Shown: positions 2,401-60,963, numbered from the stretch's first letter. The stretch: DNA of 64,000 nt from Candidatus Woesearchaeota archaeon (GCA_964344975.1 CAYFPK010000001.1:15485-79484); one strand, 5' to 3'. Program-made: numbers and translations. Notes: generated by a model not told the origin, from the letters alone.

Positions 2401-2631
2401 ATGGGAACAAAGACCATCTCAATCACAGAAGAAGCATATAGAATTTTACAATCCAAAAAAGAAAAAGAAGAAAGTTTCAGTAAAGTGATAGTTAGACTTT
2501 CAGGAAAGAAAAATCTAGCTTCTTTTTTTGGAGCATTAAGCGAAAAATCAGCTAAAGACCTCAAAAAAGAGGTAGAACTTGCAAGAAAAAGACATAAAAA
2601 AAGACACCTCAAAAGGATAAAAGAGCAATGA
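2401..2631 (+). CDS. VapB-type antitoxin (COG1753-like); longest-ORF start is 2287
   Basis: MGTKTISITEEAYRILQSKKEKEESFSKVI matches the small archaeal antitoxins paired with PIN toxins. Its stop overlaps the start of the PIN gene (ATGA at 2628-2631). The internal ATG at 2401 is the likelier start. Confidence 0.5.
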   Translation: MGTKTISITEEAYRILQSKKEKEESFSKVIVRLSGKKNLASFFGALSEKSAKDLKKEVELARKRHKKRHLKRIKEQ

Positions 2632-3023
2632 TTCTAGACACCTCATTTTTGATAGACCTTCTAAGAGGCAAGGATCAAAAAGTAAAACAAAAAGCAGAAG
2701 AATTAGATAGAGTCTTTACAACAAGAGAAGTCTCAGCCATAACAGTCATGGAGCTCTGGAGAGGCGCATGTAAAGCAGCAAAAACAAAAAAAGAAAAAGA
2801 AAAGGTAGATACCCTTTTACAATCTTTAGTAATTCATAATTTTAACCAAACAACAGCAAAATATGCTGCAGAAATAGAAGTAGACCTAGAAAAAAGAGGA
2901 GAAATGATTGATCTAGAAGATATCATGATAGCAGCAACAGCAAGAGCAACAAACAAAAAAATTCTAACAAGAAATAACAAACATTTCAAAAGAATACAAA
3001 ATATAACCATAGAAACATACTAA
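2628..3023 (+). CDS. vapC: PIN-domain toxin VapC
   Basis: MILDTSFLIDLL start with the conserved N-terminal Asp. ...ITVMEL... and ...IAATARATNKKILTRNNKHF are characteristic PIN acidic-residue positions. Start overlaps the antitoxin stop. Confidence 0.7.
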   Translation: MILDTSFLIDLLRGKDQKVKQKAEELDRVFTTREVSAITVMELWRGACKAAKTKKEKEKVDTLLQSLVIHNFNQTTAKYAAEIEVDLEKRGEMIDLEDIMIAATARATNKKILTRNNKHFKRIQNITIETY

Positions 3024-3026
3024 GTC

Positions 3027-3130
3027 TTTGGCGGCATTGTGCAAAACATTAACACGGCAGAATGTCTAGCACAAGCCATAAACAAAAACTACGAGTCGCT
3101 TAGGGTTGTAAGAAATTGGTTTAATTACTG
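3027..3130 (+). pseudogene. remnant of a geranylgeranyl reductase C-terminal region, paralogous to 13346..13440
   Basis: 3030..3085 is about 93% identical at nucleotide level to 13346..13401 of the intact reductase gene (ggcggcattgtgcaaaacattaac[a/g]cggcagaatgtctagcaca...). It translates to GGIVQNINTAECLAQAINKNYESL... versus GGIVQNINAAECLAQAIDQNKSYETL.... No start codon; ends in a poly-G tract. Confidence 0.55.
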
Positions 3131-3140
3131 GGGGGGGGGG
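3131..3140. repeat. G10 homopolymer tract
   Basis: Ten consecutive G on a plus strand that is otherwise markedly G-poor. It lies between the reductase remnant and the compositionally atypical Cache-HAMP gene block. Confidence 0.8.
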
Positions 3141-3182: not shown

Positions 3183-4349
3183 ATGAAACTAAGATTCCAA
3201 TTATTGATATTGCTATTGGTTGTATCCATTATTCACATTATTTCTTTCACTTATCTTTCTTACACTGATACGGTTGATATATTGTTAGATGACAGTATCG
3301 AGGATCTAGAACGAGGTGTTTTTTCTAAGACCAAGGATGTAAACTTTTTTCTTTCTGGTGCTCAAGATGAGGTTTTGTTTCTAAGCCAATCTCCAATTCT
3401 TAATAAATTGGTTAATTCCAAAGACGAAAGTGATAAAGAATCACTAAAAGCAGATTTGGAGAAAGAATTTCTTTCGTTTCTAAAGAATAAGGATAAATAC
3501 CTTCAAGTAAGATATATTGATGAAGATGGTCAGGAAACCGTACGTATTGATAGAGGTGGTGGAACACCACTTATTGTTGATGAAGGATTACAAAATAAAG
3601 GAGATAGGTACTATTTCACCGATTCAATTAGTCTTAAAGAAGGAGAGATTTTTATCTCCCCACTAGACCTTAATATAGAAGAAGGAGTTATAGAAAACAG
3701 AGGAACGGAGGAAGAACCAGCCTATGTTCCTGTTATAAGATATGCAACTCCCATTTTTGATAAAGCAGGGAAAAACAGAGGAATTGTCATCACTAATCTT
3801 CATGCAGATGAGATGTTAAGTAATTTACAAAAAGGAGTTGTTGGGGACTTATTTTTGTTGAATAAGGAAGGATTCTACTTAACCCATCCCGATTATTATA
3901 AACAGTGGGGGTTTATGTTTGATAACGATGAGAAATTACAAAAAGATCATCCAGTAATAGCAGACAAATTACTTACCTCCAGCAACTTTTTTGAGTCCGG
4001 AAAACTCGTTGTTGTTGAAAACATTGAAGTAAACGAAGAAACATCTTGGGTTTTAGCAAATATAATCTCCAAAGATATTATTATAAATCCTGTGAAAAAA
4101 TCTGCTACCAAACTAATATGGATTGCAACAGTGCTAGCTGTTCTGATAACTATACTATCTCTTTATCTATCCCACACATTAACAAAACCAATAGAACTGA
4201 TAGCAAAGTTAAGTAGAGGAGAAAAAGGAGTTGATATTAAGAAGTTTAAGAAGAAGAATGATGAAATTGGTGATATGGCAAGAGCATTTAGCAGGATGAG
4301 CGCTAGTATCAAGTTTTTATCACAAGATGAAAAGAGTAAGAAAAAATGA
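3183..4349 (+). CDS. Cache-like sensor / TM / HAMP protein with no methyl-accepting signalling domain
   Basis: N-terminal TM (LLILLLVVSIIHIISFTYL), a ~270 aa extracytoplasmic domain with a Cache-like pattern, a second TM (IWIATVLAVLITILSLYL), then a HAMP-like segment (TKPIELIAKLSRGEKGVDIKKF...IGDMARAFSRMSASIKFL). The ORF stops right after HAMP. TATA-like ctttaaataa at 3149-3158, 24 nt upstream of the ATG. Coding strand is T-rich, unlike other plus-strand genes. Confidence 0.5.
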   Translation: MKLRFQLLILLLVVSIIHIISFTYLSYTDTVDILLDDSIEDLERGVFSKTKDVNFFLSGAQDEVLFLSQSPILNKLVNSKDESDKESLKADLEKEFLSFLKNKDKYLQVRYIDEDGQETVRIDRGGGTPLIVDEGLQNKGDRYYFTDSISLKEGEIFISPLDLNIEEGVIENRGTEEEPAYVPVIRYATPIFDKAGKNRGIVITNLHADEMLSNLQKGVVGDLFLLNKEGFYLTHPDYYKQWGFMFDNDEKLQKDHPVIADKLLTSSNFFESGKLVVVENIEVNEETSWVLANIISKDIIINPVKKSATKLIWIATVLAVLITILSLYLSHTLTKPIELIAKLSRGEKGVDIKKFKKKNDEIGDMARAFSRMSASIKFLSQDEKSKKK

Positions 4350-4570
4350 CACTAAAAGATGAGATGATGAAAGTTGCAGTTGAATACATGGGACCAGCTG
4401 CAGAAAGGTTTATGAAAAGGCAGGTTAAGAGTCATTTAAACAAAACACTAACCACTATTTCTAAAGAAGATCTCCCTGAATTGGCGAAATGGATAGAAAT
4501 TTCTGCGGGTTTGCTTATAGATAAAGAAGAGGCAAAACAATTCAAACAAGAAATTAAAGCATTAGCATAG
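4346..4570 (+). CDS. hypothetical 74 aa protein
   Basis: Start overlaps the previous stop (ATGA at 4346-4349). No recognisable motif. Confidence 0.35.
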   Translation: MTLKDEMMKVAVEYMGPAAERFMKRQVKSHLNKTLTTISKEDLPELAKWIEISAGLLIDKEEAKQFKQEIKALA

Positions 4571-4748
4571 ATTTGTACCATCTGCGGATACGCCCCACCG
4601 ATTATACTTCTTTCAGTTAAGTATTCTCATTGATGTTCCAAGAAGGAAGGAGAATACTTTGCATTTAAAATACCTCCTTCAAACGAGCCGCACAAAAGCC
4701 AAAAAGCTTAAATAAGAAAAAAAACAGAAAAGAAAAAGAGGTGAAACC

Positions 4749-5048
4749 ATGACAATTATGGAAATTCTTCCAAACACAATAGCAGCACTAGCATCATTAA
4801 TAGCAAGCGTGCTTTTGATAAAATTAGCCCTAGCAATGAAAGGAGGCTCACTAAGCAGTGTAATGAATTATACCGTCATAGGAATCATCCTAGCAGTATG
4901 TCTACACGCGTTTTTTGAGTTAGCAGCACAAACAGGCCTAGTAAACGAAGCCATAGTATTCCCTGTTATGGGAACGTTACTAACAGTAGGGTCTTTAAGC
5001 TTCATAGTGGCAGGGTACAAAGGACTAAGAGTGTTTAAGGAAAAATGA
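4749..5048 (+). CDS. small membrane protein (2-3 TM)
   Basis: Three hydrophobic helices. SD-like aagaggtga 6 nt upstream of the ATG. Confidence 0.45.
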   Translation: MTIMEILPNTIAALASLIASVLLIKLALAMKGGSLSSVMNYTVIGIILAVCLHAFFELAAQTGLVNEAIVFPVMGTLLTVGSLSFIVAGYKGLRVFKEK

Positions 5049-5329
5049 CAAAAAAAGGGTACGAGGAGATCACACAAACCATTCTCAGTGAAAAGAGAGA
5101 AACGTTTGGAAATCTAGCGATAAAAGTAGCAAAAAGTGTAGATGGGCTACAAGTTAGCGAGCAGGGAAACCTCCAAGCAATCTCAGGCAATCCTAAAACC
5201 GTCTTAAACAAGTTACTAGATAGATTTGAGGAAATAGCAGGAAAACCATCCTCTACCGGCGCAAGATTAGCAATTGCAAAGATAAAAGCCAAGTACCCAA
5301 AACTAGACTTACCCAGAAGGTTGGCATAG
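5045..5329 (+). CDS. hypothetical protein
   Basis: ATGA overlap with the preceding gene at 5045-5048. No recognisable motif. Confidence 0.35.
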   Translation: MTKKGYEEITQTILSEKRETFGNLAIKVAKSVDGLQVSEQGNLQAISGNPKTVLNKLLDRFEEIAGKPSSTGARLAIAKIKAKYPKLDLPRRLA

Positions 5330-5569
5330 TTATTTCAACTTACGTAATTCTTTTTTCTTTTCTTTAAGAATTTTTGAAGCTTCATCAATTTGATTTTCAA
5401 GAACAGAGATATAATACTTCAAGTACTTCTTACGACTCATGGCTTCAACTGCATCCACGTCACACTCTAAAGCCCGATGTCGAGAAGAAGAAACAGACTT
5501 CTTACGAGAAACCTTCTTTTTCACCTTCGTACGTTTTTGAGCAGCTTTTTTCTTCCGCTTCAATACCAT
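5330..5569 (-). CDS. small basic coiled-coil protein
   Basis: 79 aa, Lys/Arg-rich N-terminus followed by a coiled-coil. No motif. Confidence 0.3.
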   Translation of the reverse strand: MVLKRKKKAAQKRTKVKKKVSRKKSVSSSRHRALECDVDAVEAMSRKKYLKYYISVLENQIDEASKILKEKKKELRKLK

Positions 5570-5600
5570 AAGGCAAAAAGGAGCTCAGGGCTATTTAAAG

Positions 5601-6134
5601 CTATTTATATTCAACAACAGAATCAACGAAAAGCCCAATTTCCTTAAGCAAACCTTTCTCAGTATCTCCTTGCAAGGCGGTAAAGACAACAGTCATATCT
5701 TGTTTTTTAAGTTTGTTCACCAGACTATGCACAAACTTACTCACGGCATCTTTTTGATTGTATATCAAAAGTGTAGACAAAGAATCAAAAATCAACCCTT
5801 TAAACTTCCCAGTTTTTAGTGCCTTGGTAATCACAATGGAGAGCTCAGTAAGAGCACCAGACGACTGCACAAACAAACAATTCTCCGCATCCTCTCGTGC
5901 TTGACCAGCTGATTTTGAAATCCCATCAATAAACAGAAATTTGTTCAAATCAATGTTAGATTTTTTAAAATCGCGACAAAGAGAATCATAGAGTTTATTC
6001 AAACTAACATACAATAGCGGCTCACAGGAAGAACAGAGCTGTTTTGAGATGGCAAGAATTTCTTTAGTATAAGCTTTATTAGAAACAACCAAAACAACAA
6101 TCTCTTCTTTAGCAACTACATCTTTCAAATTCAT
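5601..6134 (-). CDS. RecA/KaiC-like fold protein with degenerate P-loop
   Basis: Alternating beta-strand/helix pattern (VVLVVSN..., GLIFDSLSTLL, MTVVFTALQGD) but no GxxGxGK[ST]. Start ATGA-coupled to the CheC-like gene upstream on the same strand. Confidence 0.4.
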   Translation of the reverse strand: MNLKDVVAKEEIVVLVVSNKAYTKEILAISKQLCSSCEPLLYVSLNKLYDSLCRDFKKSNIDLNKFLFIDGISKSAGQAREDAENCLFVQSSGALTELSIVITKALKTGKFKGLIFDSLSTLLIYNQKDAVSKFVHSLVNKLKKQDMTVVFTALQGDTEKGLLKEIGLFVDSVVEYK

Positions 6135-6754
6135 TGTAATTTATGCTTTATAGCCTCAACAACTTTAGTTAACGATTCAATAGCAATAAGTAAAATAAAC
6201 TCACCCTCTACCTTCTGTCCAGGAACAGAAAAATGAGTCTTAAGCAAAATGGAATACTTTTCCTCAATACCAAGCAGTGCTAAATCAGCAAGAGATTCAC
6301 CAAACGTTGAGACAATACGTTCTTCAGAAGAGTTAATAGAAAGTTCCAAAAATTCAGTAAGAGAATGTACATAATTTTTAGTTAGCACATTACCCACCTC
6401 TTTTAAACGAATTTGATCCTCAGCACTCAGTACCTTTGTTGTTCCAGGTTTACGACCATTGACAAGATCTACCAAAAACAAGGCATTTTCGGTAGTATAG
6501 ACGATCAAAACGGTACCAGCAACATCACCGGTCAAAGAGGAATAGGTACCCACCACCATTTGCTGAGGACCACCAAGAACAGTAGGCAAATCCTTAACAG
6601 GCAACAAATAAATTTCAGGGGTAATAAGATTCACTTGTTGATCCAGCAAACGAGCAAGAGCCCCAGAAGCCTTACCCGCCCCAATGTTGGAAACTTCTTT
6701 TAAAGCATCTTGAAACTTATCCAGTTTAAAGCCTTTCAAAGCGAACCACCTCAC
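6131..6754 (-). CDS. cheC: CheC-family (CheC/CheX/FliY-like) chemotaxis phosphatase
   Basis: Two internally repeated segments carrying CheC signatures: ALKEVSNIGAGKASGALARLL and EDQIRLKEVGNVLTKNYVHSL (E...N motifs). Confidence 0.55.
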   Translation of the reverse strand: MRWFALKGFKLDKFQDALKEVSNIGAGKASGALARLLDQQVNLITPEIYLLPVKDLPTVLGGPQQMVVGTYSSLTGDVAGTVLIVYTTENALFLVDLVNGRKPGTTKVLSAEDQIRLKEVGNVLTKNYVHSLTEFLELSINSSEERIVSTFGESLADLALLGIEEKYSILLKTHFSVPGQKVEGEFILLIAIESLTKVVEAIKHKLQ

Positions 6755-6817
6755 TAAACATGATAAAACCTAAGGTGAAGTTCTCCTATTAAAGATTTAC
6801 GATTAAAAAAAAGAGGA

Positions 6818-7900
6818 ATGTTACCACTCAAAAAAACAACAAATAAACTAAGCAATATACTTAAAAAGACAAAACAAGAAGAACCACTCATGATTAAGGT
6901 ACTCATTGTTGACGATTCTATGTTCATGCGCAAAATGATTGCCGACATTTTGGAAGAAGATCATAGAATAAAAGTTATAGCAACAGCAAAAAATGGTTTT
7001 GAAGCGTTAGACAAGATCCAACAGTTAAAGCCTGATGTAGTTACACTTGACCTTGAAATGCCAAAAATATCTGGCCTTGACACATTATACGAAATAATGC
7101 GTACCAACCCCACGCCAACAGTCATAATTTCTGCATATTCTCCGATGGGATCAAAAGAAGCAATCCTTGCACTACAATACGGAGCAATTGACATAGTAGA
7201 AAAACCATCAGGCCCCATTTCTATGAACATCAGCACGATCAAAGAACAAATACTTGCCGCAGTAAAAGCTGCAGCAAACGCTAACCCACAGCAAGTGCAT
7301 AAATTTATCAAAAAAAAGATAGCAAGAAAAATAAAAGTAAAAAAAGAGATAATTCTCATTGCAGCATCGTCAGGGGGCCCACCAGCCATTGAAAGCATTT
7401 TAAAAACGTTTCCCAAACGATTTCCAATCCCCATCGTGATACTGCAACACATGCCAAGACATTTCACAAAAGCCTTTGCCGAACGCCTCAACCGTGTCTG
7501 CCATATAGCAGTAAAAGAAGCAGAGGACAACGAAAAACTCTGCAACGGCCAAGTATATATAGCCCCTGGTGGCAAGGATTTAACATTTGAAAAAAAAGTT
7601 ACCTCGGTCCGGATAAGGTTAACAGAGGCAAAGCAGCAGCTGACACCGAATATTGATACAACATTCAATTCAGCAGCACAAATATACAGAGAAAAAGTAC
7701 TTGCAATCATCCTCACTGGCATGGGTAGTGATGGAGCCCAAGGTGCACTACAACTAAAGAACAAAGGAGCACAAATACTCGCTCAAGATAAAAAAACAAG
7801 CACGGTGTTCGGTATGCCACAAGCAGTCGTCGCGTTAAACGCAGCTGACGAAGTAGTTTCTTTGCCAAACATGCCAGAAACAATGAATAAGTATTTATAA
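6818..7900 (+). CDS. cheB: chemotaxis response regulator protein-glutamate methylesterase CheB (receiver + methylesterase)
   Basis: Receiver domain (KVLIVDDSMFMRKMI...VVTLDLEMPKISGL). C-terminal methylesterase with the catalytic Ser in the AASSGGP context, plus ...HMPRHFTKAFAERL... and ...GMGSDGAQG.... The alternative ATG at 6890 (MIKVLIVDD) is a likelier true start. Confidence 0.75.
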   Translation: MLPLKKTTNKLSNILKKTKQEEPLMIKVLIVDDSMFMRKMIADILEEDHRIKVIATAKNGFEALDKIQQLKPDVVTLDLEMPKISGLDTLYEIMRTNPTPTVIISAYSPMGSKEAILALQYGAIDIVEKPSGPISMNISTIKEQILAAVKAAANANPQQVHKFIKKKIARKIKVKKEIILIAASSGGPPAIESILKTFPKRFPIPIVILQHMPRHFTKAFAERLNRVCHIAVKEAEDNEKLCNGQVYIAPGGKDLTFEKKVTSVRIRLTEAKQQLTPNIDTTFNSAAQIYREKVLAIILTGMGSDGAQGALQLKNKGAQILAQDKKTSTVFGMPQAVVALNAADEVVSLPNMPETMNKYL

Positions 7901-7922
7901 GAGAAAAGGAAGAAAAAGAAAG

Positions 7923-8609
7923 ATGGAAATAGCAAAACTGTACAAAAAAGAGTGTGCAAATTGTCTGCAAGTCATCAAGGTCACAGTAACAAAAATAAAG
8001 AACAAAAAAGGCAACAAGCAAACATTCGCGAACTTACGCAGAGCAGCACATACCTTAAAGAGTAGTTCTCTACAAATGCAATATTATAGCATGGGGTACC
8101 TCGCGCAACAGTTAGAGGATATCGCAAGATTATTGGCAGAAAAAAAGATAAAACCAACAAAAAAGATAGTTGCATTTCTCCACGATTTTTCAACAACGAT
8201 TGGGAAAGTAGAAAAAGCAATTCAAAGCAAAAAAACCCCTCAGATCAAGCCAGAACTCATCAAAAATTTAGACAGTATCCTTGGAAAAGCCCAAGAAAAG
8301 GGCTTCACAAAGGTTAAAAAGTTAAAAGAAACAGACGATTTAGAAAAAATTTACAAAGAAGAAACCAAAAAAGCAATTAACATGTTACTAACAGACATAG
8401 AAAGAGTAAAAAGAGAAAGCGACCTAGACCTCTTCATAGAAACAACCAACAAAGATTTAAAAAAAGAGATAGAAAGAATCGACGCAAAGATAAATTTAAA
8501 GATTGGCAAATACAACAAAGAAAACTTGGTAATAAAGGAAATAGAAAAAAACCATATTATCCTAAAAGGAGTAGATATATTTTATGAAAAAAATAAATTT
8601 TTTGACTAA
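7923..8609 (+). CDS. stand-alone HPt (CheA-P1-like histidine phosphotransfer) domain protein
   Basis: LRRAAHTLKSSSLQMQYYSMGYLAQQLEDIARLL matches the HPt/CheA-P1 phospho-histidine helix (aHtlKGss...G...lE). The rest is a K/E-rich coiled-coil. No kinase catalytic domain. Confidence 0.55.
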   Translation: MEIAKLYKKECANCLQVIKVTVTKIKNKKGNKQTFANLRRAAHTLKSSSLQMQYYSMGYLAQQLEDIARLLAEKKIKPTKKIVAFLHDFSTTIGKVEKAIQSKKTPQIKPELIKNLDSILGKAQEKGFTKVKKLKETDDLEKIYKEETKKAINMLLTDIERVKRESDLDLFIETTNKDLKKEIERIDAKINLKIGKYNKENLVIKEIEKNHIILKGVDIFYEKNKFFD

Positions 8610-8742
8610 AATCTATGCAAAATGCTCCAACAACACTAGACAAAATAAAGGCCTTAGAAAAAGTACCAAAAAACAGCTACAAGAGACCAAAGCGAAAACT
8701 ATTTAAACAAGTGTCCAATAAAATAGACAAAGAAACAAAAAA

Positions 8743-9273
8743 ATGGACAGCATAGCAAAACACTTCTACAAAGAACCTCAAAGAGAGTTCCACATAAGAG
8801 AATTAGCAAAAATAACAAAGAAATCCCCTTCAACAGTAGCAAAATACCTTCAAAAATGGGCAAAAGAAGGACTGTTAAAAGAAAAAAAGCAATACAACCA
8901 CAAGATATACAGAGCAAACACAGAAAGCGAAATATTCAAAGAAAAAAAAAGACACAATAATCTGCTCAACATAAGAAAATCAAACCTAATAGAGCACCTC
9001 AACAAGACATACAATCATCCCGAAGCAATCATCCTTTTTGGTTCATACGCAAAAGCAGAAAATACACAAAGAAGTGACATAGATTTACTTATAATCACAG
9101 AAAAGAAGAATAAAGAAGACCTTAAAAAGTTCGAAAAAAAACTAGAACACAACATACAAGTATTTACAAAAACAAAAAAGGAAATAGAAAAAACGAAAAA
9201 AGAAAATAAAGAGTTACTAAACAACTGGGTAAACGGTATAACCTTAAGTGGTCATTGGGAGTTATTTGAATGA
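8743..9273 (+). CDS. nucleotidyltransferase (MNT-type) with N-terminal wHTH
   Basis: GS-x9-DxD nucleotidyltransferase motif (ILFGSYAKAENTQRSDIDLLIIT). Confidence 0.6.
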   Translation: MDSIAKHFYKEPQREFHIRELAKITKKSPSTVAKYLQKWAKEGLLKEKKQYNHKIYRANTESEIFKEKKRHNNLLNIRKSNLIEHLNKTYNHPEAIILFGSYAKAENTQRSDIDLLIITEKKNKEDLKKFEKKLEHNIQVFTKTKKEIEKTKKENKELLNNWVNGITLSGHWELFE

Positions 9274-9698
9274 GATTCAAAAATTTTATAGAGAGTGGTC
9301 AAGTCAGAAAAGGACAAAAAGATATATCTCTAGCAAAATCACTTGTAAAAACTGCAAAACAAGATTTAGTATATTTACAAACAGTAAAAATAGATAAGGA
9401 ATCTGCAAGAAAAACAGTTACAAATTACTATGACACTTTACGAAGTTTACTCGAGGCAGAAACTGCCCTGAAAGGATACAAGGTATATTCCCATGAAGCC
9501 TTTACGTATTATCTAAAAGAGAAAGGAGAAGAAAATTTTGCAATAAAATTTGACAGGTTTAGAAAAATTAGAAACAAAATAAATTATTATGGCCAAGAAA
9601 TATCACCAGAGGAAGCAGAAGAATATTGTAAAAAAATCCAGAAATTTATTAAAGAAAAGATAGGACAAATAAACCTAGAAAGAAAAAATGCCCGTTAA
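9270..9698 (+). CDS. HEPN-domain protein (partner of the preceding nucleotidyltransferase)
   Basis: ATGA overlap with the upstream nucleotidyltransferase. Helical, with RFRKIRNKINYYG, a HEPN R-x4-6-H-like motif. Confidence 0.5.
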   Translation: MRFKNFIESGQVRKGQKDISLAKSLVKTAKQDLVYLQTVKIDKESARKTVTNYYDTLRSLLEAETALKGYKVYSHEAFTYYLKEKGEENFAIKFDRFRKIRNKINYYGQEISPEEAEEYCKKIQKFIKEKIGQINLERKNAR

Positions 9699-10587
9699 CC
9701 CAGGAATAGATTTCCAACTAGCCGAAGAAGAGTACAAAAACGCTTCAACGACCTTAGACAAGATTAAAGGCCTAGAAAAGATGTATAGGACTTGTCCCAA
9801 ACATAAAGGTTCAGAAAAATTATTACAGCAAATAAAAACAAAACTCACTAAACTCAAAGCCCAAGTTGAAAAACAAAGACAAACCAAAAAAGGCGGCGGA
9901 CATTCTATAACCGTTAAACGTGAAGGCGCAGCGCAAGTAATTTTTATGGGCACAACTAATGTAGGAAAAAGTACATTATTACAAGAACTCACTAACGCAA
10001 AACCAGACATTGCAGAGTACGAATTCACAACAACCATGCCAGAGGTGGGCAGCATGAACTACCACGGAATTCAAATCCAGTTAATAGAACTACCAGCGAT
10101 TCATGAAGGCTACGCAGATAAAGGCAACGGGCCGGCGTTTATGGCCATTGCAAGAAACGCAAAACTCATAGTAATAATCTTAGATGGAGAAAAACCATTA
10201 GCAAAACAATTAAGATTAATAAAAAAAGAATGCGACAACAGCTTTCTCAACATTGACAAAGCAATCATTACGATAACAAAAAAGTTCAAACGACCAAAAA
10301 CTAAACTACAGTTAGTTAAACCAAAACACCTCAAAGAAGCTATTTGGAAAAACCTCAACTTCATATACGTATTCACTAAACAACCACAAAAAGATAAAGA
10401 CTGGCCACCGGTACATCTCAAAAAAGGAAGTACAATTAAAGACTTAGCAAGTATAGTCCATAAAGATTTTCTAAAAAAATTCAAATTTGCAAAAGTGTGG
10501 GGCAAAAGCGTCAAACACAACGGCACCAATGCAGGACTCGACCATGTGTTAAAGCAAGGTGACGTGATAGAACTACACCTCAAATAA
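9688..10587 (+). CDS. DRG-family (Obg-like) GTPase with C-terminal TGS domain
   Basis: N-terminal KKGGGHSITVKREGAAQV then G1 GTTNVGKST, G2 FTT, and ELPAI. C-terminal TGS-like GDVIELH. The pattern matches developmentally regulated GTP-binding proteins. Confidence 0.7.
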   Translation: MPVNPGIDFQLAEEEYKNASTTLDKIKGLEKMYRTCPKHKGSEKLLQQIKTKLTKLKAQVEKQRQTKKGGGHSITVKREGAAQVIFMGTTNVGKSTLLQELTNAKPDIAEYEFTTTMPEVGSMNYHGIQIQLIELPAIHEGYADKGNGPAFMAIARNAKLIVIILDGEKPLAKQLRLIKKECDNSFLNIDKAIITITKKFKRPKTKLQLVKPKHLKEAIWKNLNFIYVFTKQPQKDKDWPPVHLKKGSTIKDLASIVHKDFLKKFKFAKVWGKSVKHNGTNAGLDHVLKQGDVIELHLK

Positions 10588-10629
10588 TGTTGTATAATAC
10601 AACAAAAAATAAAAGGAGGAAGGAAGGCG

Positions 10630-11025
10630 TTGTACAGCACAACCAAAAAGCTTAAATATATGGATAACGTTGTAGGATATAACATGAACGAAAAAGAAGA
10701 AATTTTAAGAGAAAACATGGAAGAATACACGCAATCCGCAAATAAAGCGTACAAAGAAGAAAAGTACAATACCGCAGTAACCCTCTTCTTTAAAGCAATA
10801 GCAGCAGCAAGTGACCTATACATTCTCAAAAAAGAAGGCAGAGCCCCATCATCACACCAACAAAGATTCAGAATAGCACAAGAAAAACACCCCAAAATAT
10901 ACAACATACTAGATAAAGATTTTTCTTTCTATCAAGACAGTTATAGTAAAAGAATGAATAAAGAAGCAGCAGAGGTACTAAAAGAAGATGCTCAAGAAAT
11001 TACAAAAGCAATTAAACAGCTATAA
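10630..11025 (+). CDS. HEPN-domain protein
   Basis: All-helical small protein immediately upstream of, and overlapping, a nucleotidyltransferase gene. Conserved H/R region SSHQQRFRI. Confidence 0.45.
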   Translation: MYSTTKKLKYMDNVVGYNMNEKEEILRENMEEYTQSANKAYKEEKYNTAVTLFFKAIAAASDLYILKKEGRAPSSHQQRFRIAQEKHPKIYNILDKDFSFYQDSYSKRMNKEAAEVLKEDAQEITKAIKQL

Positions 11026-11545
11026 AAAAGATGAATCAATCTTTGATATAGTCATATACGGATCTGCTACAAAAGGAGAGAAAAAGCCAAACGACATTGA
11101 CATAGTTATAATTTGCAACGAGGGAACACTCAGACAAAGACTAGAGAAGGCACAAGAAATAAAAAGAAAGATAGAAACAAACAAAAAGATAGATATAAAA
11201 ACAATACTTTGGCAAGAATTATTTCAAAAAGAGTTTTTCGCACGAGCAGGAATCTTTACTGCCGGTATAAGTTGCTTTGAGAATAAACCTTTCGCGAATA
11301 AGATTGGTTGCACAGCAGCAACAATATTCACCTATAACCTAAAAAATAAAACACATACAGAAAAAATAAAGTTTAACTATATACTAAGAGGCAGAAATAC
11401 AATAGGAATGATAAAAAGATTAAAGGGTACACATGTGGCACCAGGAGTAATCCAAATACCTACAGAAAACCAGAAAGAATTCGAAGAAGTACTTAAAAAA
11501 AATAAAATCCAATACAAAAAAAAGAATCACCTTATAGAAATGTGA
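10988..11545 (+). CDS. nucleotidyltransferase-domain protein
   Basis: IVIYGSATKGEKKPNDIDIVII gives the GS...DxD signature. Confidence 0.6.
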   Translation: MLKKLQKQLNSYKKDESIFDIVIYGSATKGEKKPNDIDIVIICNEGTLRQRLEKAQEIKRKIETNKKIDIKTILWQELFQKEFFARAGIFTAGISCFENKPFANKIGCTAATIFTYNLKNKTHTEKIKFNYILRGRNTIGMIKRLKGTHVAPGVIQIPTENQKEFEEVLKKNKIQYKKKNHLIEM

Positions 11546-11578
11546 AAAAAGGTAATAGAGTTACATTTAAAATAAAGC

Positions 11579-11851
11579 CTATTCTCGTGGGGGCAAGCCC
11601 AAAAATTGACAAATATCCTTCTTTTTTCGAGGATTCAAAGAAACATGCCACTCACCTGTTTTTTTTGCACGAAGTAAAAACTCTTTACGTAATAATTCCT
11701 TAATAGCCTTCTGCACAACTTTCTCTCCTCGAAGATGCATAGGCAGACTCTTCACAAGGTTCTTCTCCTCAGTGTGAGAAGCACCCCATTTAGGAGGCCT
11801 CATAGACATTAACTTACGAAGAATTTTTTCTTGAATAGCTCGCTTTTCCAC
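11579..11851 (-). CDS. hypothetical small basic protein, possibly DNA/RNA-binding
   Basis: 90 aa, basic, no clear motif. Confidence 0.3.
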   Translation of the reverse strand: MEKRAIQEKILRKLMSMRPPKWGASHTEEKNLVKSLPMHLRGEKVVQKAIKELLRKEFLLRAKKTGEWHVSLNPRKKKDICQFLGLPPRE

Positions 11852-11956
11852 AGAGCAAAAAAGAACAACGACTTCTTAAGTCTTTCCAAACAAAAAGGTA
11901 TATCAACATACCAAAAAGAAAAGTTTAAATAGAGGTAGTCAGTACTTACTATCGAT

Positions 11957-12283
11957 ATGAAAACAACAACAGTATTTACCCAAGCACTAGGCAACTCACC
12001 AGTAATCCGAATATTAGATTTTCTCATAGAAGGCAGAGATTTAGATTATTCATTAACAGACATAGCAGAAAATGCGCACGTAAGCTGGAGCACATTACAC
12101 AGGGTATGGAACAATCTAATACAAACAAAGATGGTGAAACCAACACGAGAAATAGGAAGAGCAAAGTTATTCAAACTCAACCAAGAAAATCCAGCAGTAA
12201 AAAAGCTAATCATACTCTACGATACACTACTCTATCAAGCCACTCAAGAAAACATGGAAGAGATGACAATACAAGTAAAATGA
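11957..12283 (+). CDS. winged-helix transcriptional regulator
   Basis: VIRILDFLIEGRDLDYSLTDIAENAHVSWSTLHRVWNNL is a wHTH pattern. Confidence 0.5.
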   Translation: MKTTTVFTQALGNSPVIRILDFLIEGRDLDYSLTDIAENAHVSWSTLHRVWNNLIQTKMVKPTREIGRAKLFKLNQENPAVKKLIILYDTLLYQATQENMEEMTIQVK

Positions 12284-12537
12284 AAGCAGACAAATTTTGG
12301 GAAAAGGTATTGGCCATGGGAAGAATTCTTTCAGAGAAAGAAGCAGAAGAAACGCACAAAACATTATACGAGATGAAAAATGAAAAAGAGTCATTTTCAC
12401 AAGCCGTGCTACGACTAACAAGAAAAAAGAAAAGTGTCATGTCTCTGGAGGGTATAGTAAAAAACAATCCTGCATTCACCAAAGGATTAAAAAAAGCCGT
12501 TAAAGAGCGAGACAAAGGGATCCTACGGACATACTAA
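12280..12537 (+). CDS. hypothetical 85 aa protein, translationally coupled to the wHTH regulator
   Basis: ATGA overlap at 12280-12283. The longer 12106..12537 ORF in the track overlaps the regulator gene and is probably an artefact. Confidence 0.35.
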   Translation: MKADKFWEKVLAMGRILSEKEAEETHKTLYEMKNEKESFSQAVLRLTRKKKSVMSLEGIVKNNPAFTKGLKKAVKERDKGILRTY

Positions 12538-12577
12538 AACAGCAACACTTTTCAAACAAACCAACCTCACAAAACCC

Positions 12578-13645
12578 ATGAAAACAAGCATAATTGGCGC
12601 AGGACCTGCAGCAAACTGGTGTGCATACAATTTAGCAAAAAAAGGCCACGAAGTGCACGTCTACGAAGAACACAAAGAAATAGGCACACCGGTACAATGT
12701 ACAGGAATACTAACCCACGCAATAAAAGACTTAATACCGCTAAAAAAAGAAGTGATTGTTAACGAATGTAAAACAGTCAAAGTCTTTGCACCAAACAAAA
12801 AATGTATAGAATTTAACCTGAAAAAACCAGATATTATAGTTTGCAGAACAAAACTGGACCAACACCTAGCAGAGCTAGCACAAAAGCAAGGCGCAGAGTA
12901 TCATCTCAACCACAGGTTCATAAAAAATAACAAAAAAGAACTCACCTTCAACAATACAACGACCAAAACAGACATTGTAATCGGCGCCGACGGTCCAAAT
13001 TCAACAGTAGCAAAACAAAACGGTTTCAAAAAAAACGACTTTTTAACAGGCATGCAAGTAACAGCAAAAATAGAGATGGATCCAAACACGTACGAAGTAC
13101 ATTTAGGCTACGGTACATTCGGTTGGGTCGTCCCAGAATCAGAAACGGTTGCAAGAATAGGTATTGTCACAAAAGAGCACCCAAAACAAAGCTTTGACGA
13201 ATTTTTAAAAATGCGCGCAAAAAATAAAAAGATTCTAGCTAACCAATCAGGCCCAATTCCATTATTCAACATGTACAAAAAGACACATAAAGAGTTCATT
13301 TATTTATTAGGCGACGCAGCAGGCATGGTCAAAGCATCCACCCACGGCGGCATTGTGCAAAACATTAACGCGGCAGAATGTCTAGCACAGGCTATAGACC
13401 AAAACAAGAGTTACGAAACACTATGGAGAAAAAGAATCGGAAAAGATTTGTACATCCACAAAAAGATCTACCAAGTCATGCAAAACTTCAGCAAAGAGGA
13501 CCACAACGAACTACTAAACTTACTAACAAAACAAAAAACAAAAGAAATCATAGAAAACCATAACAGAGACTACATTACAAAATTCATAACCAAAGCAATA
13601 ATCTCGCAGCCAAAGTTACTAAAATTTCTCACAAAATTAGCATAA
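12578..13645 (+). CDS. geranylgeranyl reductase family FAD-dependent oxidoreductase (archaeal lipid saturation)
   Basis: N-terminal FAD-binding IIGAGPAANWCAYNLAKKGHEVHVYEE, VIGADGPNSTVAK, and overall length and order typical of archaeal geranylgeranyl reductases. Confidence 0.75.
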   Translation: MKTSIIGAGPAANWCAYNLAKKGHEVHVYEEHKEIGTPVQCTGILTHAIKDLIPLKKEVIVNECKTVKVFAPNKKCIEFNLKKPDIIVCRTKLDQHLAELAQKQGAEYHLNHRFIKNNKKELTFNNTTTKTDIVIGADGPNSTVAKQNGFKKNDFLTGMQVTAKIEMDPNTYEVHLGYGTFGWVVPESETVARIGIVTKEHPKQSFDEFLKMRAKNKKILANQSGPIPLFNMYKKTHKEFIYLLGDAAGMVKASTHGGIVQNINAAECLAQAIDQNKSYETLWRKRIGKDLYIHKKIYQVMQNFSKEDHNELLNLLTKQKTKEIIENHNRDYITKFITKAIISQPKLLKFLTKLA

Positions 13646-13668
13646 TATACGGAAAAACACCCAAAAGA
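13613..13668. repeat. direct repeat copy A: reductase 3' terminus plus downstream promoter region; second copy at 14512..14568
   Basis: About 88% identity over ~56 bp with 14512..14568. Both copies encode the same peptide KLLKFLTKLA* but with synonymous differences (tta/ctg, aca/acc, tta/cta). Confidence 0.6.
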
Positions 13669-13669
13669 C

Positions 13670-13677
13670 TTATATAA
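13670..13677 (+). promoter_or_regulatory. TATA box (ttatataa) for the leaderless DUF3368/UPF0175 cassette
   Basis: 21 nt upstream of ATG 13699. Same geometry as other promoters in the window. Confidence 0.45.
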
Positions 13678-13698
13678 CATTGTGCACATTGTAATACA

Positions 13699-14184
13699 AT
13701 GATAATTAAGGATAGCATGGTATTAATTCACCTTGCAAAATTAGCCTTACTAGAAGAAAGTTGTAACCTCTTCAAGAAAGTGAGCATCCCAAAAGAAGTA
13801 CACAAAGAGATAAAAAAAGGAAAACAAAGAGGCTACGCTGACGCACAAGTAACCCTTGATCTAATCGAAGAAGGGAAAATAAAAGTAAAGAAAGTAACAA
13901 AAAAAGACCTAATAAGAAGGGCATACCAATACAACATTCAAGGCGGAGAAGCCGAAGCAGTAGCCCTCTACTGGCAAGAAAATGCAAAAGCAATCGCAAC
14001 AGATGATGACAATGTAAGAAAAAAGAGAAGAATTTTAAATTTAACAATCATAGGAACACCAGCAATCATAGCAAAACTAAAAGAAGAAAAGAAAATAAGT
14101 AAACAAAGATTCAAACAAAGCATACATGAATTAAGAAAAATAGGATGGTTTAGTCAAGGAGTACTAGATCAATTAGATGAATAG
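13699..14184 (+). CDS. PIN-like toxin of the DUF3368 family
   Basis: N-terminal Asp (IIKDSMVLIHL), GEAEAVALY and ATDDDNVRKK motifs characteristic of DUF3368 PIN-like proteins. Confidence 0.55.
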   Translation: MIIKDSMVLIHLAKLALLEESCNLFKKVSIPKEVHKEIKKGKQRGYADAQVTLDLIEEGKIKVKKVTKKDLIRRAYQYNIQGGEAEAVALYWQENAKAIATDDDNVRKKRRILNLTIIGTPAIIAKLKEEKKISKQRFKQSIHELRKIGWFSQGVLDQLDE

Positions 14185-14189
14185 ATAAC

Positions 14190-14501
14190 ATGGCCGAAGC
14201 AATAGGAATAAGACTTGAGGTAGACTTTTTAAAAAAAGTTGAACGTTTATGCAAAAAGGAAGTAGAAGATAGGAGCAGTACCCTTCGAAAATTATTGGAA
14301 AAAGGATACAGACAAAAGATAAAAGAAAATGCAACAGAAACATACAAAAAGGGATTAATAACAATTTCTAAAGCCGCACAAGAAGCAGAAATAACAGTAT
14401 GGGAAATGCAAGAGCACCTCATAAACCAAGGAGTAGTTTCAAGTTACAATAAAGAAGATCTCAAAAGAGAAAAAGAGATACTTGATAAAATCGCAAAGTA
14501 A
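14190..14501 (+). CDS. UPF0175-family antitoxin (partner of DUF3368)
   Basis: ITISKAAQEAEITVWEMQEHLINQGV matches the UPF0175 HTH core. Adjacent to the DUF3368 gene. Confidence 0.5.
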   Translation: MAEAIGIRLEVDFLKKVERLCKKEVEDRSSTLRKLLEKGYRQKIKENATETYKKGLITISKAAQEAEITVWEMQEHLINQGVVSSYNKEDLKREKEILDKIAK

Positions 14502-14511
14502 GAAAAGAGTG

Positions 14512-14568
14512 AAACTGCTTAAATTTCTCACCAAACTAGCATAATATACGAAAAAACAACCAAAAAGT
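14512..14568. repeat. direct repeat copy B (diverged reductase 3'-end remnant plus promoter)
   Basis: See copy A. Encodes KLLKFLTKLA* out of frame with the neighbouring genes. Confidence 0.6.
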
Positions 14569-14575
14569 ATATAAA
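14568..14575 (+). promoter_or_regulatory. TATA box (tatataaa) for the AbrB-antitoxin/VapC cassette
   Basis: 23 nt upstream of ATG 14599. Confidence 0.45.
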
Positions 14576-14598
14576 GATGTTTAAACATATGTATAAAC

Positions 14599-14796
14599 AT
14601 GGAAGCAAGAGTAACAAAATGGGGAAATTCAATGGGAGTCCTCTTATCAAAAAGGAAACTAGAAGAGTTAGGTATTAAAAAAGGAGATAAAATCGAAATC
14701 AACATAATCAGCAAAAAAAGAATAGATGGGTTCGGAATTTGTAAAGGGGCAAAGCCATTTAAAAGAGAAAAAGACGAACACGAAGATTTATGGTAA
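14599..14796 (+). CDS. AbrB/MazE/SpoVT-type antitoxin
   Basis: VTKWGNSMGVLLSKRKLEELGIKKGDKIEI is the swapped-hairpin AbrB-type motif (K-x-GNS). Confidence 0.6.
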   Translation: MEARVTKWGNSMGVLLSKRKLEELGIKKGDKIEINIISKKRIDGFGICKGAKPFKREKDEHEDLW

Positions 14797-14797
14797 A

Positions 14798-15184
14798 ATG
14801 GAATACATATTAGATAGCTATGCCTGGATTGAATATTTTAATGGGACAGAAGAGGGAAAAATAGTGAATAAACTCTTTAAAGATCCAAAAAAGAGATTCT
14901 ACACAGTAATTTGTTGTCTTGCTGAAATACAAGGTTGGGCTTTGAAAAATAAAGGAAATTTTGAAAACCTTTTCAGACTAATAAAAAGCAATTCGACAAT
15001 AATACAACTTACAGAGCAAGATTGGATTCAAGCAGCAAAAGAAAAGCACGAGCAAAGAAAAGCCTACAAAGATTTTGGATTAATAGATGCAACACTCATC
15101 ACAATACAAAAACAGATAAAGGCAAAAATAGTTTCAGGTGACAAACATTTCAAAGAGCAAAAAGGAGTGATCTTTCTGGCATGA
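14798..15184 (+). CDS. vapC: PIN-domain toxin VapC (longest ORF starts at 14726)
   Basis: MEYILDSYAWIEYF start immediately after the antitoxin TAA (14794-14796). GLIDATLITIQ...GDKHF are PIN acidic positions. Confidence 0.65.
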   Translation: MEYILDSYAWIEYFNGTEEGKIVNKLFKDPKKRFYTVICCLAEIQGWALKNKGNFENLFRLIKSNSTIIQLTEQDWIQAAKEKHEQRKAYKDFGLIDATLITIQKQIKAKIVSGDKHFKEQKGVIFLA

Positions 15185-15281
15185 ATGAGAAAAAAGAAAA
15201 ACTGGGTTGGCTTATATTAGTAGAAAAAAATCTTGCAAAGGATTGGTTAAGCAAGGAAGAGGAAAAAGCATGGAAAGACCT

Positions 15282-16331
15282 TTAACCTAATCTATACCGC
15301 AACACACAAACAACCCCACCAAGCCCGTCAAGCTGCGCACCAGAATCAGAAGCACCAGAAACAATATGTACAGCACCAGATGATTTTTCACAATTTTCTA
15401 AAACAGCATCAAGTTCAGCGTATCGCTCATCTTCACGCAAAGAAGCAATAAACGTATCAGTAACTAACAAAACCTTAACAGCGCCCAAAGACACAGCAGA
15501 GCTAACATCAACAAGACCATAACACACCAAACCAGGATCAGTACGCAACACAGACAAAAATTCAGTAACTAAAGCAACATCTTGTTGCAAGCGAGCAAAA
15601 GATAATGCACGTTGCACTTCACTGCGACGCAACAACTCTTGTAAACCAACTTTTCCGGTGTGATGACAGGTAGCAAGAACAACTTTAAAGTTAACAGAAC
15701 CAAGCCGTTTATAGATTTCATCCTTCCAAAACGCCGGACTACCAATAACAACAGTAGACAAACCGTACCGGTCAACATACGAGGAGATCTCAGCAACCAC
15801 ATCAGCATAAAAGTCACCAGAAGACATATGCCCCGCTCTCTTTTTAGCAACATTACCAGAAATTTCACCCAAAAAAGCAAGACCATAGCCTTGCAACAAA
15901 CCAAAGGAAGCTACTTCCCGATCAAGAGCAACTAAAAGTACAGTTGACTTAGCAGAAGAACACGCATCATCTAAATGTTTTTTTTGAAAAGCAAGCAATT
16001 TAGATTTAGTAACAAAAAAAGTATCACCTACAGCAAAACGAAACGTATGGTAACTCCCTGATGCAACCTCATCAGACCCATCGACAACAGTACCAACAAC
16101 TTCTAACACATCTTGAGCAAAAGTAACTCGCTCAACATTAACAGATAACGAAAACACTTTACGCACCACACGCGACTTAGCATCAGCATCACCTAAACGT
16201 ACTTTACGCTCATCCTTGGCAATAACAACATCCCCAGCGGATAAAAAATGACTTAAGTGCCACAAATCATCAAGGGTAGCAACACGTAAACGAAACTCCT
16301 TTTTTTTCAGATCGCAAAAGACTAAATCCAT
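15282..16331 (-). CDS. pelA: Pelota/Dom34 ribosome-rescue factor (longest ORF extends to 16382)
   Basis: MDLVFCDLKKKEFRLRVATLDDLWHLSHFL matches the Pelota N-terminus (DLKKGEIKL..EDLDDLWHL). eRF1-like central and C-terminal domains follow. Confidence 0.75.
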   Translation of the reverse strand: MDLVFCDLKKKEFRLRVATLDDLWHLSHFLSAGDVVIAKDERKVRLGDADAKSRVVRKVFSLSVNVERVTFAQDVLEVVGTVVDGSDEVASGSYHTFRFAVGDTFFVTKSKLLAFQKKHLDDACSSAKSTVLLVALDREVASFGLLQGYGLAFLGEISGNVAKKRAGHMSSGDFYADVVAEISSYVDRYGLSTVVIGSPAFWKDEIYKRLGSVNFKVVLATCHHTGKVGLQELLRRSEVQRALSFARLQQDVALVTEFLSVLRTDPGLVCYGLVDVSSAVSLGAVKVLLVTDTFIASLREDERYAELDAVLENCEKSSGAVHIVSGASDSGAQLDGLGGVVCVLRYRLG

Positions 16332-16353
16332 AACACAACCAAGTACATAACCT

Positions 16354-16361
16354 TTATAAAG
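16354..16361. promoter_or_regulatory. palindromic TATA box (tttataaa) shared by divergent leaderless genes pelA and 16383
   Basis: 22 nt from the Pelota ATG (16331, minus) and 21 nt from ATG 16383 (plus). The intergenic region is only 51 bp. Confidence 0.5.
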
Positions 16362-16382
16362 CATACGAGCTAAAATCAACAC

Positions 16383-60908: not shown

Positions 60909-60934
60909 GTCTAAATGCAAAATCGGCGAAATGG

Positions 60935-60943
60935 TTATATAAA
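60935..60943. promoter_or_regulatory. palindromic TATA box (ttatataaa) between divergent membrane protein A and the Trm5-like gene
   Basis: 20 nt upstream of ATG 60964 (plus) and 26 nt upstream of ATG 60908 (minus). Confidence 0.45.
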
Positions 60944-60963
60944 GCTTGTGATAACATAAACAG

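Follow-up and report, generated by a model that had tools for sequence, protein, structure and literature searches.

A 64,000-nucleotide (nt) stretch of DNA from a Candidatus Woesearchaeota archaeon (GCA_964344975.1 CAYFPK010000001.1:15485-79484; hereafter the window, with positions counted from its first letter) carries an intact gene of the geranylgeranyl reductase family whose 3' end is present twice. The two copies stand as direct repeats on both sides of a small inserted toxin-antitoxin cassette (cassette A), one of them completing the target gene, and a second toxin-antitoxin cassette (cassette B) follows. The reductase, of 355 amino acids (aa), matched the NCBIfam model TIGR02032 over its full length (174.9 bits against a cutoff of 158.8). 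It has 1357 homologues at E<=1e-10, several of which are named geranylgeranyl or digeranylgeranylglycerophospholipid reductase by their sources, and the C-terminal motif (P)RLLKFxTKL is kept among homologues. Wherever a homologue comes with a source name, the label is Nanoarchaeota or Woesearchaeota, which marks the host as a DPANN-type archaeon. The features that make up the repeat-bracketed arrangement are the following.

12578-13645, plus strand: geranylgeranyl reductase family gene, intact, 355 aa (TIGR02032)
13613..13668, plus strand: repeat copy 1, the functional reductase 3' end (last 10 codons, stop codon and 23-nt spacer)
13669..14511, plus strand: cassette A, inserted, 843 nt including 10 nt after the UPF0175 gene; left end CTTATATAACATTGTGCAC…, right end …GAAAAGAGTG
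13670-13677, plus strand: TATA-like box TTATATAA of cassette A, 29 nt before the ATG
between this TATA-like box and the toxin ATG, plus strand: operator-like palindrome ACATTGTGCACATTGT of cassette A
13699-14184, plus strand: predicted PIN-DUF3368 toxin gene, 155-aa product
14190-14501, plus strand: predicted UPF0175 antitoxin gene (Pfam, 36 bits against a cutoff of 27.9)
14512..14568, plus strand: repeat copy 2, a non-coding relic of the reductase terminus (KLLKFLTKLA* plus spacer)
14568..15184, plus strand: cassette B, a TATA box and an AbrB/VapC pair
14568-14575, plus strand: TATA box TATATAAA of cassette B
14599-14796, plus strand: AbrB/MazE-like antitoxin gene, with weak family matches only
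14798-15184, plus strand: VapC PIN toxin gene (NCBIfam, Pfam)

When the reductase gene was compared with the whole window by blastn, 13619-13666 matched 14518-14565 at 89.6% identity (E=3e-12). The extended alignment of 13613-13668 with 14512-14568 held about 48 identical positions in 57, and the similarity took in the TATA box, up to about 13679/14578. KLLKFLTKLA* is encoded by both copies; they differ at 6 of the 33 coding nt, in each case synonymously (codon positions 3, 1, 3, 3, 3 and 1). The probability that six random substitutions would spare both peptide and stop codon is 4.5e-5 if all of them fell on a neutral relic, and about 0.003 in a mixture model that places half of the changes on the constrained copy. 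Besides the two AAA domains of one gene, the only interspersed repeats that a blast comparison of the 64 kb with itself revealed were copy 2 and a further reductase fragment at 3030, which is described below. The first-pass annotation of this DNA had placed the reductase end at 13645, its recurring terminus at 14512-14568 with the same peptide reached through synonymous codons, and the DUF3368/UPF0175 cassette between the repeats with AbrB/VapC next. Alignments and gene calls agree with each of these placements, and the concern it had raised, that the similarity might fall below significance for so AT-rich a region, is answered by the E values of 3e-12 for copy 2 and 1e-18 for the fragment at 3030.

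Independent assemblies (L001, L013, L014, L016 and L020; L numbers denote the contigs and loci used for comparison) reproduced the tandem copies at 99.9-100% identity, and, counted over the two repeat structures, 9 independent contigs from several samples and two projects carry the junctions. Since the independent assemblies carry the same junctions, an assembly artefact or chimera was ruled out. An exact-pattern scan of genome and metagenome contig collections for the repeat AAATTTCTCACNAAANTAGCATAATATAC gave no match; neither this organism nor its close kin is represented there. We give almost no credence to the notion that the repeat does not derive from the reductase and is instead a promoter or regulatory motif, a chance similarity of A-rich DNA or a product of chimeric assembly. 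The spacer does end at the TATA box in both copies, and the plus strand of the window is strongly A-rich (G+C about 37%). Against this notion stand the two E values, the absence of other interspersed repeats in 64 kb, the nine contigs that carry the junctions, and the alignment of copy 2 with a genuine reductase terminus in the second haplotype presented below.

Cassette A consists of two adjacent small co-directional genes with domains of the PIN-DUF3368 and UPF0175 type II toxin-antitoxin families, and by this architecture it is a type II toxin-antitoxin module, the toxicity being predicted. In our own Pfam scan of the toxin product, PIN and DUF3368 stayed below cutoff; PF11848 is given on its database record, as it is for all 120 PIN-DUF3368 homologues among the matches listed. 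The nearest of these toxin homologues are only about 60% identical, and therefore no recent donor can be named. A TATA-like box was found 29-31 nt before the ATG in each cassette (13670-13698 and 14568-14598 in the window, and at loci elsewhere). Behind it the AbrB/VapC cassette has the palindrome GTTTAAAC/ATATGTAT. In PIN-DUF3368 cassettes, the TATA box belonging to the unit and the palindrome ACAATGTGCACATTGT before the toxin ATG are kept across distant genomes. The combination of TATA box and palindrome suggests a leaderless promoter with an operator, and hence autoregulated operons.

The empty counterpart of this site was found in a co-occurring haplotype, here called haplotype L, whose contigs were recovered through an exact-protein look-up of the AbrB-like antitoxin (L015) and from the reductase cluster (L021), together with L017. 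Along L015 and L021 the GTPase end is followed by VapB, VapC, reductase and AbrB; the PIN-DUF3368/UPF0175 cassette is absent, and the reductase gene, a 25-nt spacer and the TATA box lead directly into AbrB. Contig L017 starts in the L-type reductase end and continues with AbrB, VapC, a 34-aa open reading frame (ORF) and Pelota. These three contigs present the unoccupied target site in a close relative, and the two haplotypes share samples: L001, of window type, and L021 both come from ERR2281800, and L015 and L020 both come from ERR2281801. Contig L020 is the cassette A bubble itself (window 13568-14598), a linear assembly bubble and not a circle. Exact-protein look-ups of the UPF0175, GTPase and Pelota products returned only window-type contigs, with no third haplotype or donor among them.

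Because the L-type reductase terminus aligns with copy 2 and is contiguous with AbrB, copy 2 is a displaced reductase terminus from a diverged allele. The relic and the L terminus are identical at 26/33 coding and 28/31 spacer positions, and at least three roughly equidistant versions of the terminus exist, namely the working copy, the relic and that of haplotype L. This real reductase end bears out the earlier proposal that copy 2 came from a diverged homologue and not from a recent local duplication, and it excludes the alternative then entertained, a conserved promoter motif unrelated to the reductase. The comparison of the haplotypes also involves the genes on either side of the cassettes, which are listed here.

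9688..10587, plus strand: DRG-type GTPase gene (MMR_HSR1 and TGS; Pfam), conserved left flank
10588..12537, plus strand: upstream variable block between the GTPase and reductase genes (Pfam, NCBIfam)
10660-11025, plus strand: 121-aa ORF within the upstream variable block
10988-11545, plus strand: MNT-type nucleotidyltransferase in the upstream variable block (Pfam/NCBIfam)
11957-12283, plus strand: helix-turn-helix (HTH) protein in the upstream variable block (Pfam/NCBIfam)
12280-12537, plus strand: orphan VapB-like antitoxin directly 5' of the reductase (Pfam/NCBIfam)
15181-15285, plus strand: 34-aa ORF MNEKKEKLGWLILVEKNLAKDWLSKEEEKAWKDL, its start overlapping the VapC stop and its end the Pelota stop
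15282-16382, minus strand: Pelota (eRF1-like) gene (Pfam), conserved right flank, convergent with the reductase

The 34-aa ORF (15181-15285) was called in independent contigs and in both haplotypes and has no family match in Pfam/NCBIfam.

Outside 10395-14568 the haplotypes are about 100% identical, and inside this interval they are diverged. Contig L021 matches the window at 100% over 10268-10394 and at 94% over 10395-10587, the last 193 nt of the GTPase gene, and L017 matches it at 100% over 14569-15774. The right breakpoint between the haplotypes thus lies at the edge of copy 2, at 14568/14569, and the left one at 10394/10395 inside the GTPase gene. Between these points the upstream block is not homologous, and haplotype L has nothing in place of the MNT and HTH genes (10588-12279). 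It carries an intact pair of VapB (74 aa) and VapC (129 aa) 5' of the reductase (L021 387-1002); its VapB shares 81% DNA identity with the orphan VapB of the window, in which the VapC is missing. The two reductase genes are 91.4% identical, and the 8.6% divergence is evenly spread and mostly synonymous. Cassette B is present in both haplotypes. In the L-type contig L021, at 2358 (window 14794), GAA stands in place of the AbrB stop codon TAA and lengthens the antitoxin ORF to 72 aa; a 152-aa VapC variant (P0126) was seen in the protein cluster.

A diverged allele (10395-14568) between flanks that are otherwise identical is what homologous exchange leaves behind; these alignments place one crossover within the GTPase gene and the other at the relic's right edge. 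The first-pass annotation had suggested that elements might recombine through the reductase end, and a haplotype divergence that stops exactly at the right edge of copy 2 fits that suggestion. It could also be supposed that a segment from a diverged strain (GTPase end, upstream block, reductase and cassette A) displaced the resident region in a single import, its left side anchored by homology and its right side joined illegitimately at resident codon 346, with the relic as an accident that has no att-like role. The divergent tract 10395-14511 would then stop exactly at the start of copy 2, as it does, and the reductase body (91%) is more diverged than its flanks. We nevertheless hold this to be very improbable: the relic is itself diverged from the L terminus, and identity returns to 100% at 14568/14569 and not at 14512. 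An accident would leave unexplained both the homology of copies 1 and 2 over 25-34 nt past the stop codon and the recurrence of such structures at 15 of 69 loci and in the arrays reported below.

Relatives show the junctions without these genes. In L002-L005 (58% reductase identity), no DNA separates the GTPase, reductase and Pelota genes, which adjoin or overlap one another; the Pelota gene overlaps the reductase 3' end by 9 nt, and the GTPase and reductase genes overlap as well. Given this direct adjacency, both reductase junctions have gained DNA in the present lineage, and they can be regarded as sites of repeated gain. A relic of the GTPase 3' end was sought 5' of the reductase start, and the similarity was too weak to claim. 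Reductase-end repeats were found in none of the relatives L002-L005, L006, L007 and L008; at the reductase/Pelota junction L006 has an unrelated 1.1-kb insert and L007 a 67-nt gap. The relatives show only that this junction is variable, and no more.

Whether repeat bracketing accompanies the cassette family elsewhere was surveyed at 80 loci of the PIN-DUF3368 toxin family from species-representative genomes, 69 of them testable, by seeking a plus-strand repeat shared between the 300 nt before the toxin gene and the zone directly after the antitoxin gene. Repeat-bracketed cassettes were found at 15 of the 69 loci, against 0/67 and 0/65 in controls whose query lay a further 300 or 600 nt upstream. 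Each repeat corresponds to the 3' end of the gene adjoining the cassette, on either strand, with lengths of 21-92 nt across loci. The distance from the last stop codon of the cassette to the downstream copy is -4 to +10 nt for 14 or more repeat pairs from about 12 distinct loci. The following genes were recognized as targets of the relics.

L036: tRNA-Lys, 45 nt from the anticodon loop to the 3' end (3' half)
L096: tRNA-Met, 21-nt 3' end
L047 and L099: prolyl-tRNA synthetase (ProRS)
L070: deoxyhypusine synthase
L077: termination factor FttA
L022 and L040: PD-(D/E)XK gene

The Woesearchaeota-type contig L022 illustrates the pattern. A PIN-DUF3368 homologue lies behind a gene for a 338-aa Zn-ribbon/PD-(D/E)XK protein, the last ~100 nt of which recur right after the UPF0175 stop codon (92 nt, 95%) and again after the next cassette, AbiEii and its partner gene. 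Relics form arrays of 3-6 in L022, L040 and L070, with MNT, Fic, AbiE and PIN cassettes between them. At least five ends of deoxyhypusine synthase stand between the MNT, PIN/UPF0175, Fic and other cassettes of L070, and L040 has six relics. The relic closest to the host gene is also the most similar to it (97% in L070, 95% in L022), an order that suggests entry of new cassettes at the functional end of the gene.

Proteins of 338-344 aa, with a zinc ribbon at the N-terminus and a PD-(D/E)XK nuclease domain at the C-terminus, anchor relic arrays in three lineages (L022 1957-2973, L032 1111-2145 and L040 1000-3950), and in L040 only fragments of the gene and the six relics remain. A role as dedicated recombinase was considered for this protein, since the 3' end of its gene forms the array repeat of L022 and L040, and rejected: it is present at 4 of the 80 surveyed loci, in 3 arrangements, and absent from the window, and it was treated as one target among many. 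The gene may be a frequent target or may be part of the machinery.

A separate survey of 63 metagenome reductase loci brought one further true case, L117, in which a MazE/ParE pair lies between 63-nt reductase-end repeats of 97% identity in a distant lineage. A marine contig, L168 (6091-7307), was set aside as a reductase relic; it proved to be a tandem duplication of two minus-strand genes with a shared C-terminus (...FAALAAGYGISKLPKRKTAEKETK), immediately downstream of the reductase. The reductase terminus had been proposed as an integration or recombination hotspot. Its independent reuse in L117 is in keeping with this, whereas the idea that the reductase is special is not sustained, with 1 of 63 loci positive and the trait belonging to a cassette family that has many targets. 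Repeat-flanked hotspot behaviour is, judged by these comparisons, a property of the cassettes and not of the reductase in particular.

Where the host reading frame was clear, the window included, the differences between relic and working copy fell at codon positions 1/2/3 in numbers of 7/3/20, and this third-position bias indicates that the relics diverged mostly as coding sequence. It bears on an in-situ origin of the repeats, in which a staggered break or template switch would have doubled the last ~57 nt of the target and the working gene would later have been replaced by a diverged allele. To account for the 6 of 6 synonymous differences and the pooled bias, this course of events would require an extra allele replacement at every locus. 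Allele replacement clearly occurs at the reductase locus, the insert is bounded exactly by two copies, the repeat length varies between loci (21-92 nt), and young-looking pairs at 95-97% identity exist (L022, L070 and L117), all of which would suit a duplication in place. Junctions inspected by eye showed no microhomology, however, there are no conserved cassette ends and no transposase among the ORFs scanned, and targets such as a tRNA 3' half would not be predicted. An in-situ duplication therefore appears improbable to us.

The reductase fragment at 3030 belongs to a second locus of the window, with the features given here.

2401..3023, plus strand: vapB (2401-2631)/vapC (2628-3023) cassette, second locus (Pfam)
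3030..3113, plus strand: internal reductase fragment, codons 257-286 of a further allele
3130..3140, plus strand: G11 homopolymer, separating the reductase fragment from the dCache gene's promoter region

This vapBC pair has a KaiC-like ATPase gene on one side and a dCache sensor gene on the other, and the fragment begins 6 nt past the vapC stop (3023), in line with the relic starts at the surveyed loci. Positions 3030-3089 and 13346-13405 are identical at 55 of 60 positions (blastn E=1e-18), and at the protein level the match extends to 3113 and covers reductase residues 257-286 with a 2-codon gap (tblastn E=1e-6). The fragment and the G11 tract, which sits in a region of 34-38% G+C, were identical in four independent assemblies (L009-L012), and all recovered contigs have the same state at this locus. 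The fragment of ~93% identity directly after vapBC is as first annotated, except that it does not end in a G10 tract; the homopolymer is G11 and lies ~17 nt beyond it. The vapBC unit was apparently once beside a reductase gene, but an internal fragment at another locus does not point to integration into this reductase. The simplest reading is that the fragment is a relic of the same kind, and that the vapBC unit, at first a neighbour of a reductase gene and with more of the relic attached, was relocated or shortened afterwards. It looks like a fourth version of the reductase, with diagnostic bases in common with both the working copy and haplotype L.

Beyond the fragment lies a chemotaxis-like cluster (3183-9698) with a dCache/HAMP sensor lacking a signalling domain, CheC, CheB and, at the place expected for CheA, an Hpt-only protein of 228 aa, the gene for which is followed by an MNT/HEPN-like pair (8743-9698). 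This cluster may have been eroded and invaded by cassettes. Far from both loci, a 457-aa ORF on the minus strand (62449-63822) combines an intein splicing domain with a Zot-like P-loop region.

For the reductase locus, the reading we favour, with modest confidence, is that copy 2 is the scar of an att-type (Campbell-type) recombination and cassette A a very small integrative unit that is not autonomous. Incoming DNA with the PIN-DUF3368/UPF0175 cassette and a reductase terminus of its own would have recombined with the resident terminus. The reductase would have stayed intact, the 843-nt insert would have acquired a terminus at either end, and cassette A would have come to lie beside the older AbrB/VapC cassette. 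The first insertions would have been made by a site-specific integrase of the tyrosine type, acting in trans or since lost. We infer an integrase because the targets are 3' ends, a tRNA 3' half and a tRNA 3' end among them; extents such as 45 nt and 21 nt at the 3' half or 3' end of a tRNA are typical of integrase att sites. Occupied and empty alleles would now be swapped between strains by homologous recombination, with the GTPase gene and the relic with its spacer as arms, and toxin-antitoxin addiction would retain the cassette in place. That toxin-antitoxin units integrate into and regenerate a gene 3' end, leaving att-like duplications, had been put forward in the first-pass annotation, and it gains support from the empty site, from L117 and from the 15 of 69 surveyed loci.

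Several observations weigh against this reading. The haplotypes differ beyond the cassette, in the reductase body (8.6%), in the upstream block and in the relic, which has 9 differences from the L terminus in 64 nt, and at least two events are therefore needed. One cassette family occurs at no fewer than 8 targets, which is awkward for sequence-specific integrases, and the left ends of the relics vary within arrays. The closer relatives L006 and L007 have an insert or a gap at the junction without the repeats. Neither an excised circle nor an attP junction was seen in the assembled contigs, L020 being linear. Pfam scans of the main window ORFs detected no integrase, transposase or recombinase, with 52554-55502, 58683-61106 and several ORFs of ~50-105 aa unscanned, and none turned up in the surroundings of about 20 repeat-flanked loci; a pooled Pfam scan of 63 neighbouring ORFs showed no integrase among the best 25 of 94 families. 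As no recombinase was present among the scanned ORFs or loci, the enzyme is hypothetical.

Two established classes of element were considered for the cassettes and rejected. Folded as DNA, the relics gave -0.9 to -6.6 kcal/mol with z-scores of -0.7 to +0.7, which is not attC-like folding. An integron gene cassette does not fit a unit without an attC fold and without intI among the scanned ORFs, in which each cassette has its own TATA-like box with an inferred promoter role. Nor does a transposon with target-site duplication: no sequence is conserved at the left end of the cassettes, the distance from repeat end to TATA box being 0-60 nt, there are thus no conserved ends, the repeat length varies from 21 to 92 nt, and no transposase was found in the scans.

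The same observations accommodate an integrase-independent route, in which each cassette carries a host-gene terminus as a portable homology arm for recombination by the host RadA. Circles would pop out between repeats and enter at a homologous terminus elsewhere, or linear DNA would enter by double crossover with the gene body and the relic as arms, and arrays would grow at a gene end like an integron, without integrase or attC sites. No integrase was found in the window scans or in arrays of up to six relics, and one cassette family with many unrelated targets and variable left boundaries of relics within arrays would be expected on this route. Mosaic identity in the relics, with 100% blocks beside diverged ones (L022, L117), points the same way, and the two breakpoints (GTPase gene, right relic edge) lie where a double crossover with those arms would fall. 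In bacteria, a study of Photorhabdus proposes that integrase-free toxin-antitoxin islets between core genes spread via flanking homologous recombination (PMC13617665). Such a route leaves unexplained, however, the first capture of the terminus of a new target, the preference for 3' ends and the tRNA extents of 45 nt and 21 nt, and several repeats of just 21-30 nt are short for homologous recombination. We regard it as the chief rival reading, though a rather unlikely one. The integrase and portable-arm ideas need not exclude each other, as the properties of Int(pTN3) discussed below would allow.

Among known systems, the closest likeness is to cis-mobilizable elements (CIMEs) and tandem accretion at a target-gene 3' end in the streptococcal ICESt1/ICESt3 family (PMC5704250). 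The 843-nt insert contains solely two toxin-antitoxin genes and a promoter and fits the CIME definition: there are no integration genes of its own, tandem additions at one site leave internal repeats, and the target gene stays intact. CIMEs differ in being decayed multi-kb islands, whereas the present units are single toxin-antitoxin operons of ~0.85 kb in DPANN-type hosts, with one cassette family at many unrelated targets, no cognate integrase-bearing element seen, and a mobility that is predicted. No functional partner element was seen beside the tandem cassettes of the window, L022, L040 and L070, and cassette A contains no remnants of other element genes. A relic that abuts the stop codon fits either a minimal unit or extreme streamlining. 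Most likely, with an integrase in trans or lost, the cassettes would be an archaeal single-operon equivalent of CIMEs and tandem accretion.

The Photorhabdus islets (PMC13617665) resemble the present cassettes in being very small, made of toxin-antitoxin genes only, free of mobile-element genes and strain-variable between core genes. They share the flanking homologous exchange as well, here seen as the breakpoints 10394/10395 and 14568/14569. Gene-end relics and relic arrays go unmentioned in the passages searched, whereas here the relic is apparently one of the homology arms.

Integrons, which have been described in archaea (PMC9668308), resemble these loci in that small cassettes, most of them single operons and often with toxin-antitoxin genes, form arrays in which a repeat like a recombination site comes after each cassette, the newest-looking repeat being by the anchor gene. 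They differ in that no IntI gene was found here, the repeats are unfolded host-gene 3' ends, and every cassette has its own TATA promoter. Elements that target tRNA genes include those with archaeal SSV/pNOB8-type integrases (PMC8371274) and the Prochlorococcus tycheposons (bioRxiv 10.1101/2020.12.28.424599). In common with them, a partial tRNA 3' copy flanks the insert (L036, L096) and integration at one site is tandem; unlike them, the insert is a toxin-antitoxin pair alone, mostly at protein-gene ends, with no integrase gene or remnant detected. The Thermococcus integrase Int(pTN3) also catalyses homology-dependent recombination, with segments down to 104 bp (PMC5495485). It shows that an archaeal tyrosine recombinase can act on any two sequences that resemble each other, and an activity of this sort could exploit the gene-end copies of many targets; no such enzyme was found here, however, and the repeats are shorter (21-92 nt) and diverged, so that the comparison serves as a lead only. 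The literature searched held no account of archaeal toxin-antitoxin cassettes that lack an integrase and stand between relics of a gene end.

The DPANN archaea have tiny genomes with many toxin-antitoxin pairs. To our knowledge, they have few recognizable mobile elements and no cultured genetic systems. We raise, as a tentative idea that is rather doubtful in its full breadth, that DPANN-type archaea possess a general process of cassette accretion, integrase-independent or driven by an unrecognised recombinase, in which small toxin-antitoxin and abortive-infection operons use the terminus of a host tRNA or housekeeping gene as a portable site, build integron-like arrays behind essential genes and pass from strain to strain with no machinery of their own. 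The scars described here would be a sequence-readable record of how toxin-antitoxin genes enter such genomes, one unit each time, at the 3' ends of tRNA and housekeeping genes, with a copy of the gene end left behind. The relics offer a simple genome-wide signature for cassette arrays, and the pairs of occupied and empty alleles in the same samples make excision, integration and recombination measurable from reads. They provide a test case for whether selfish toxin-antitoxin operons can spread by host recombination alone. If the recombinase is new or absent, these cassettes would be an archaeal counterpart of integrons and CIMEs.

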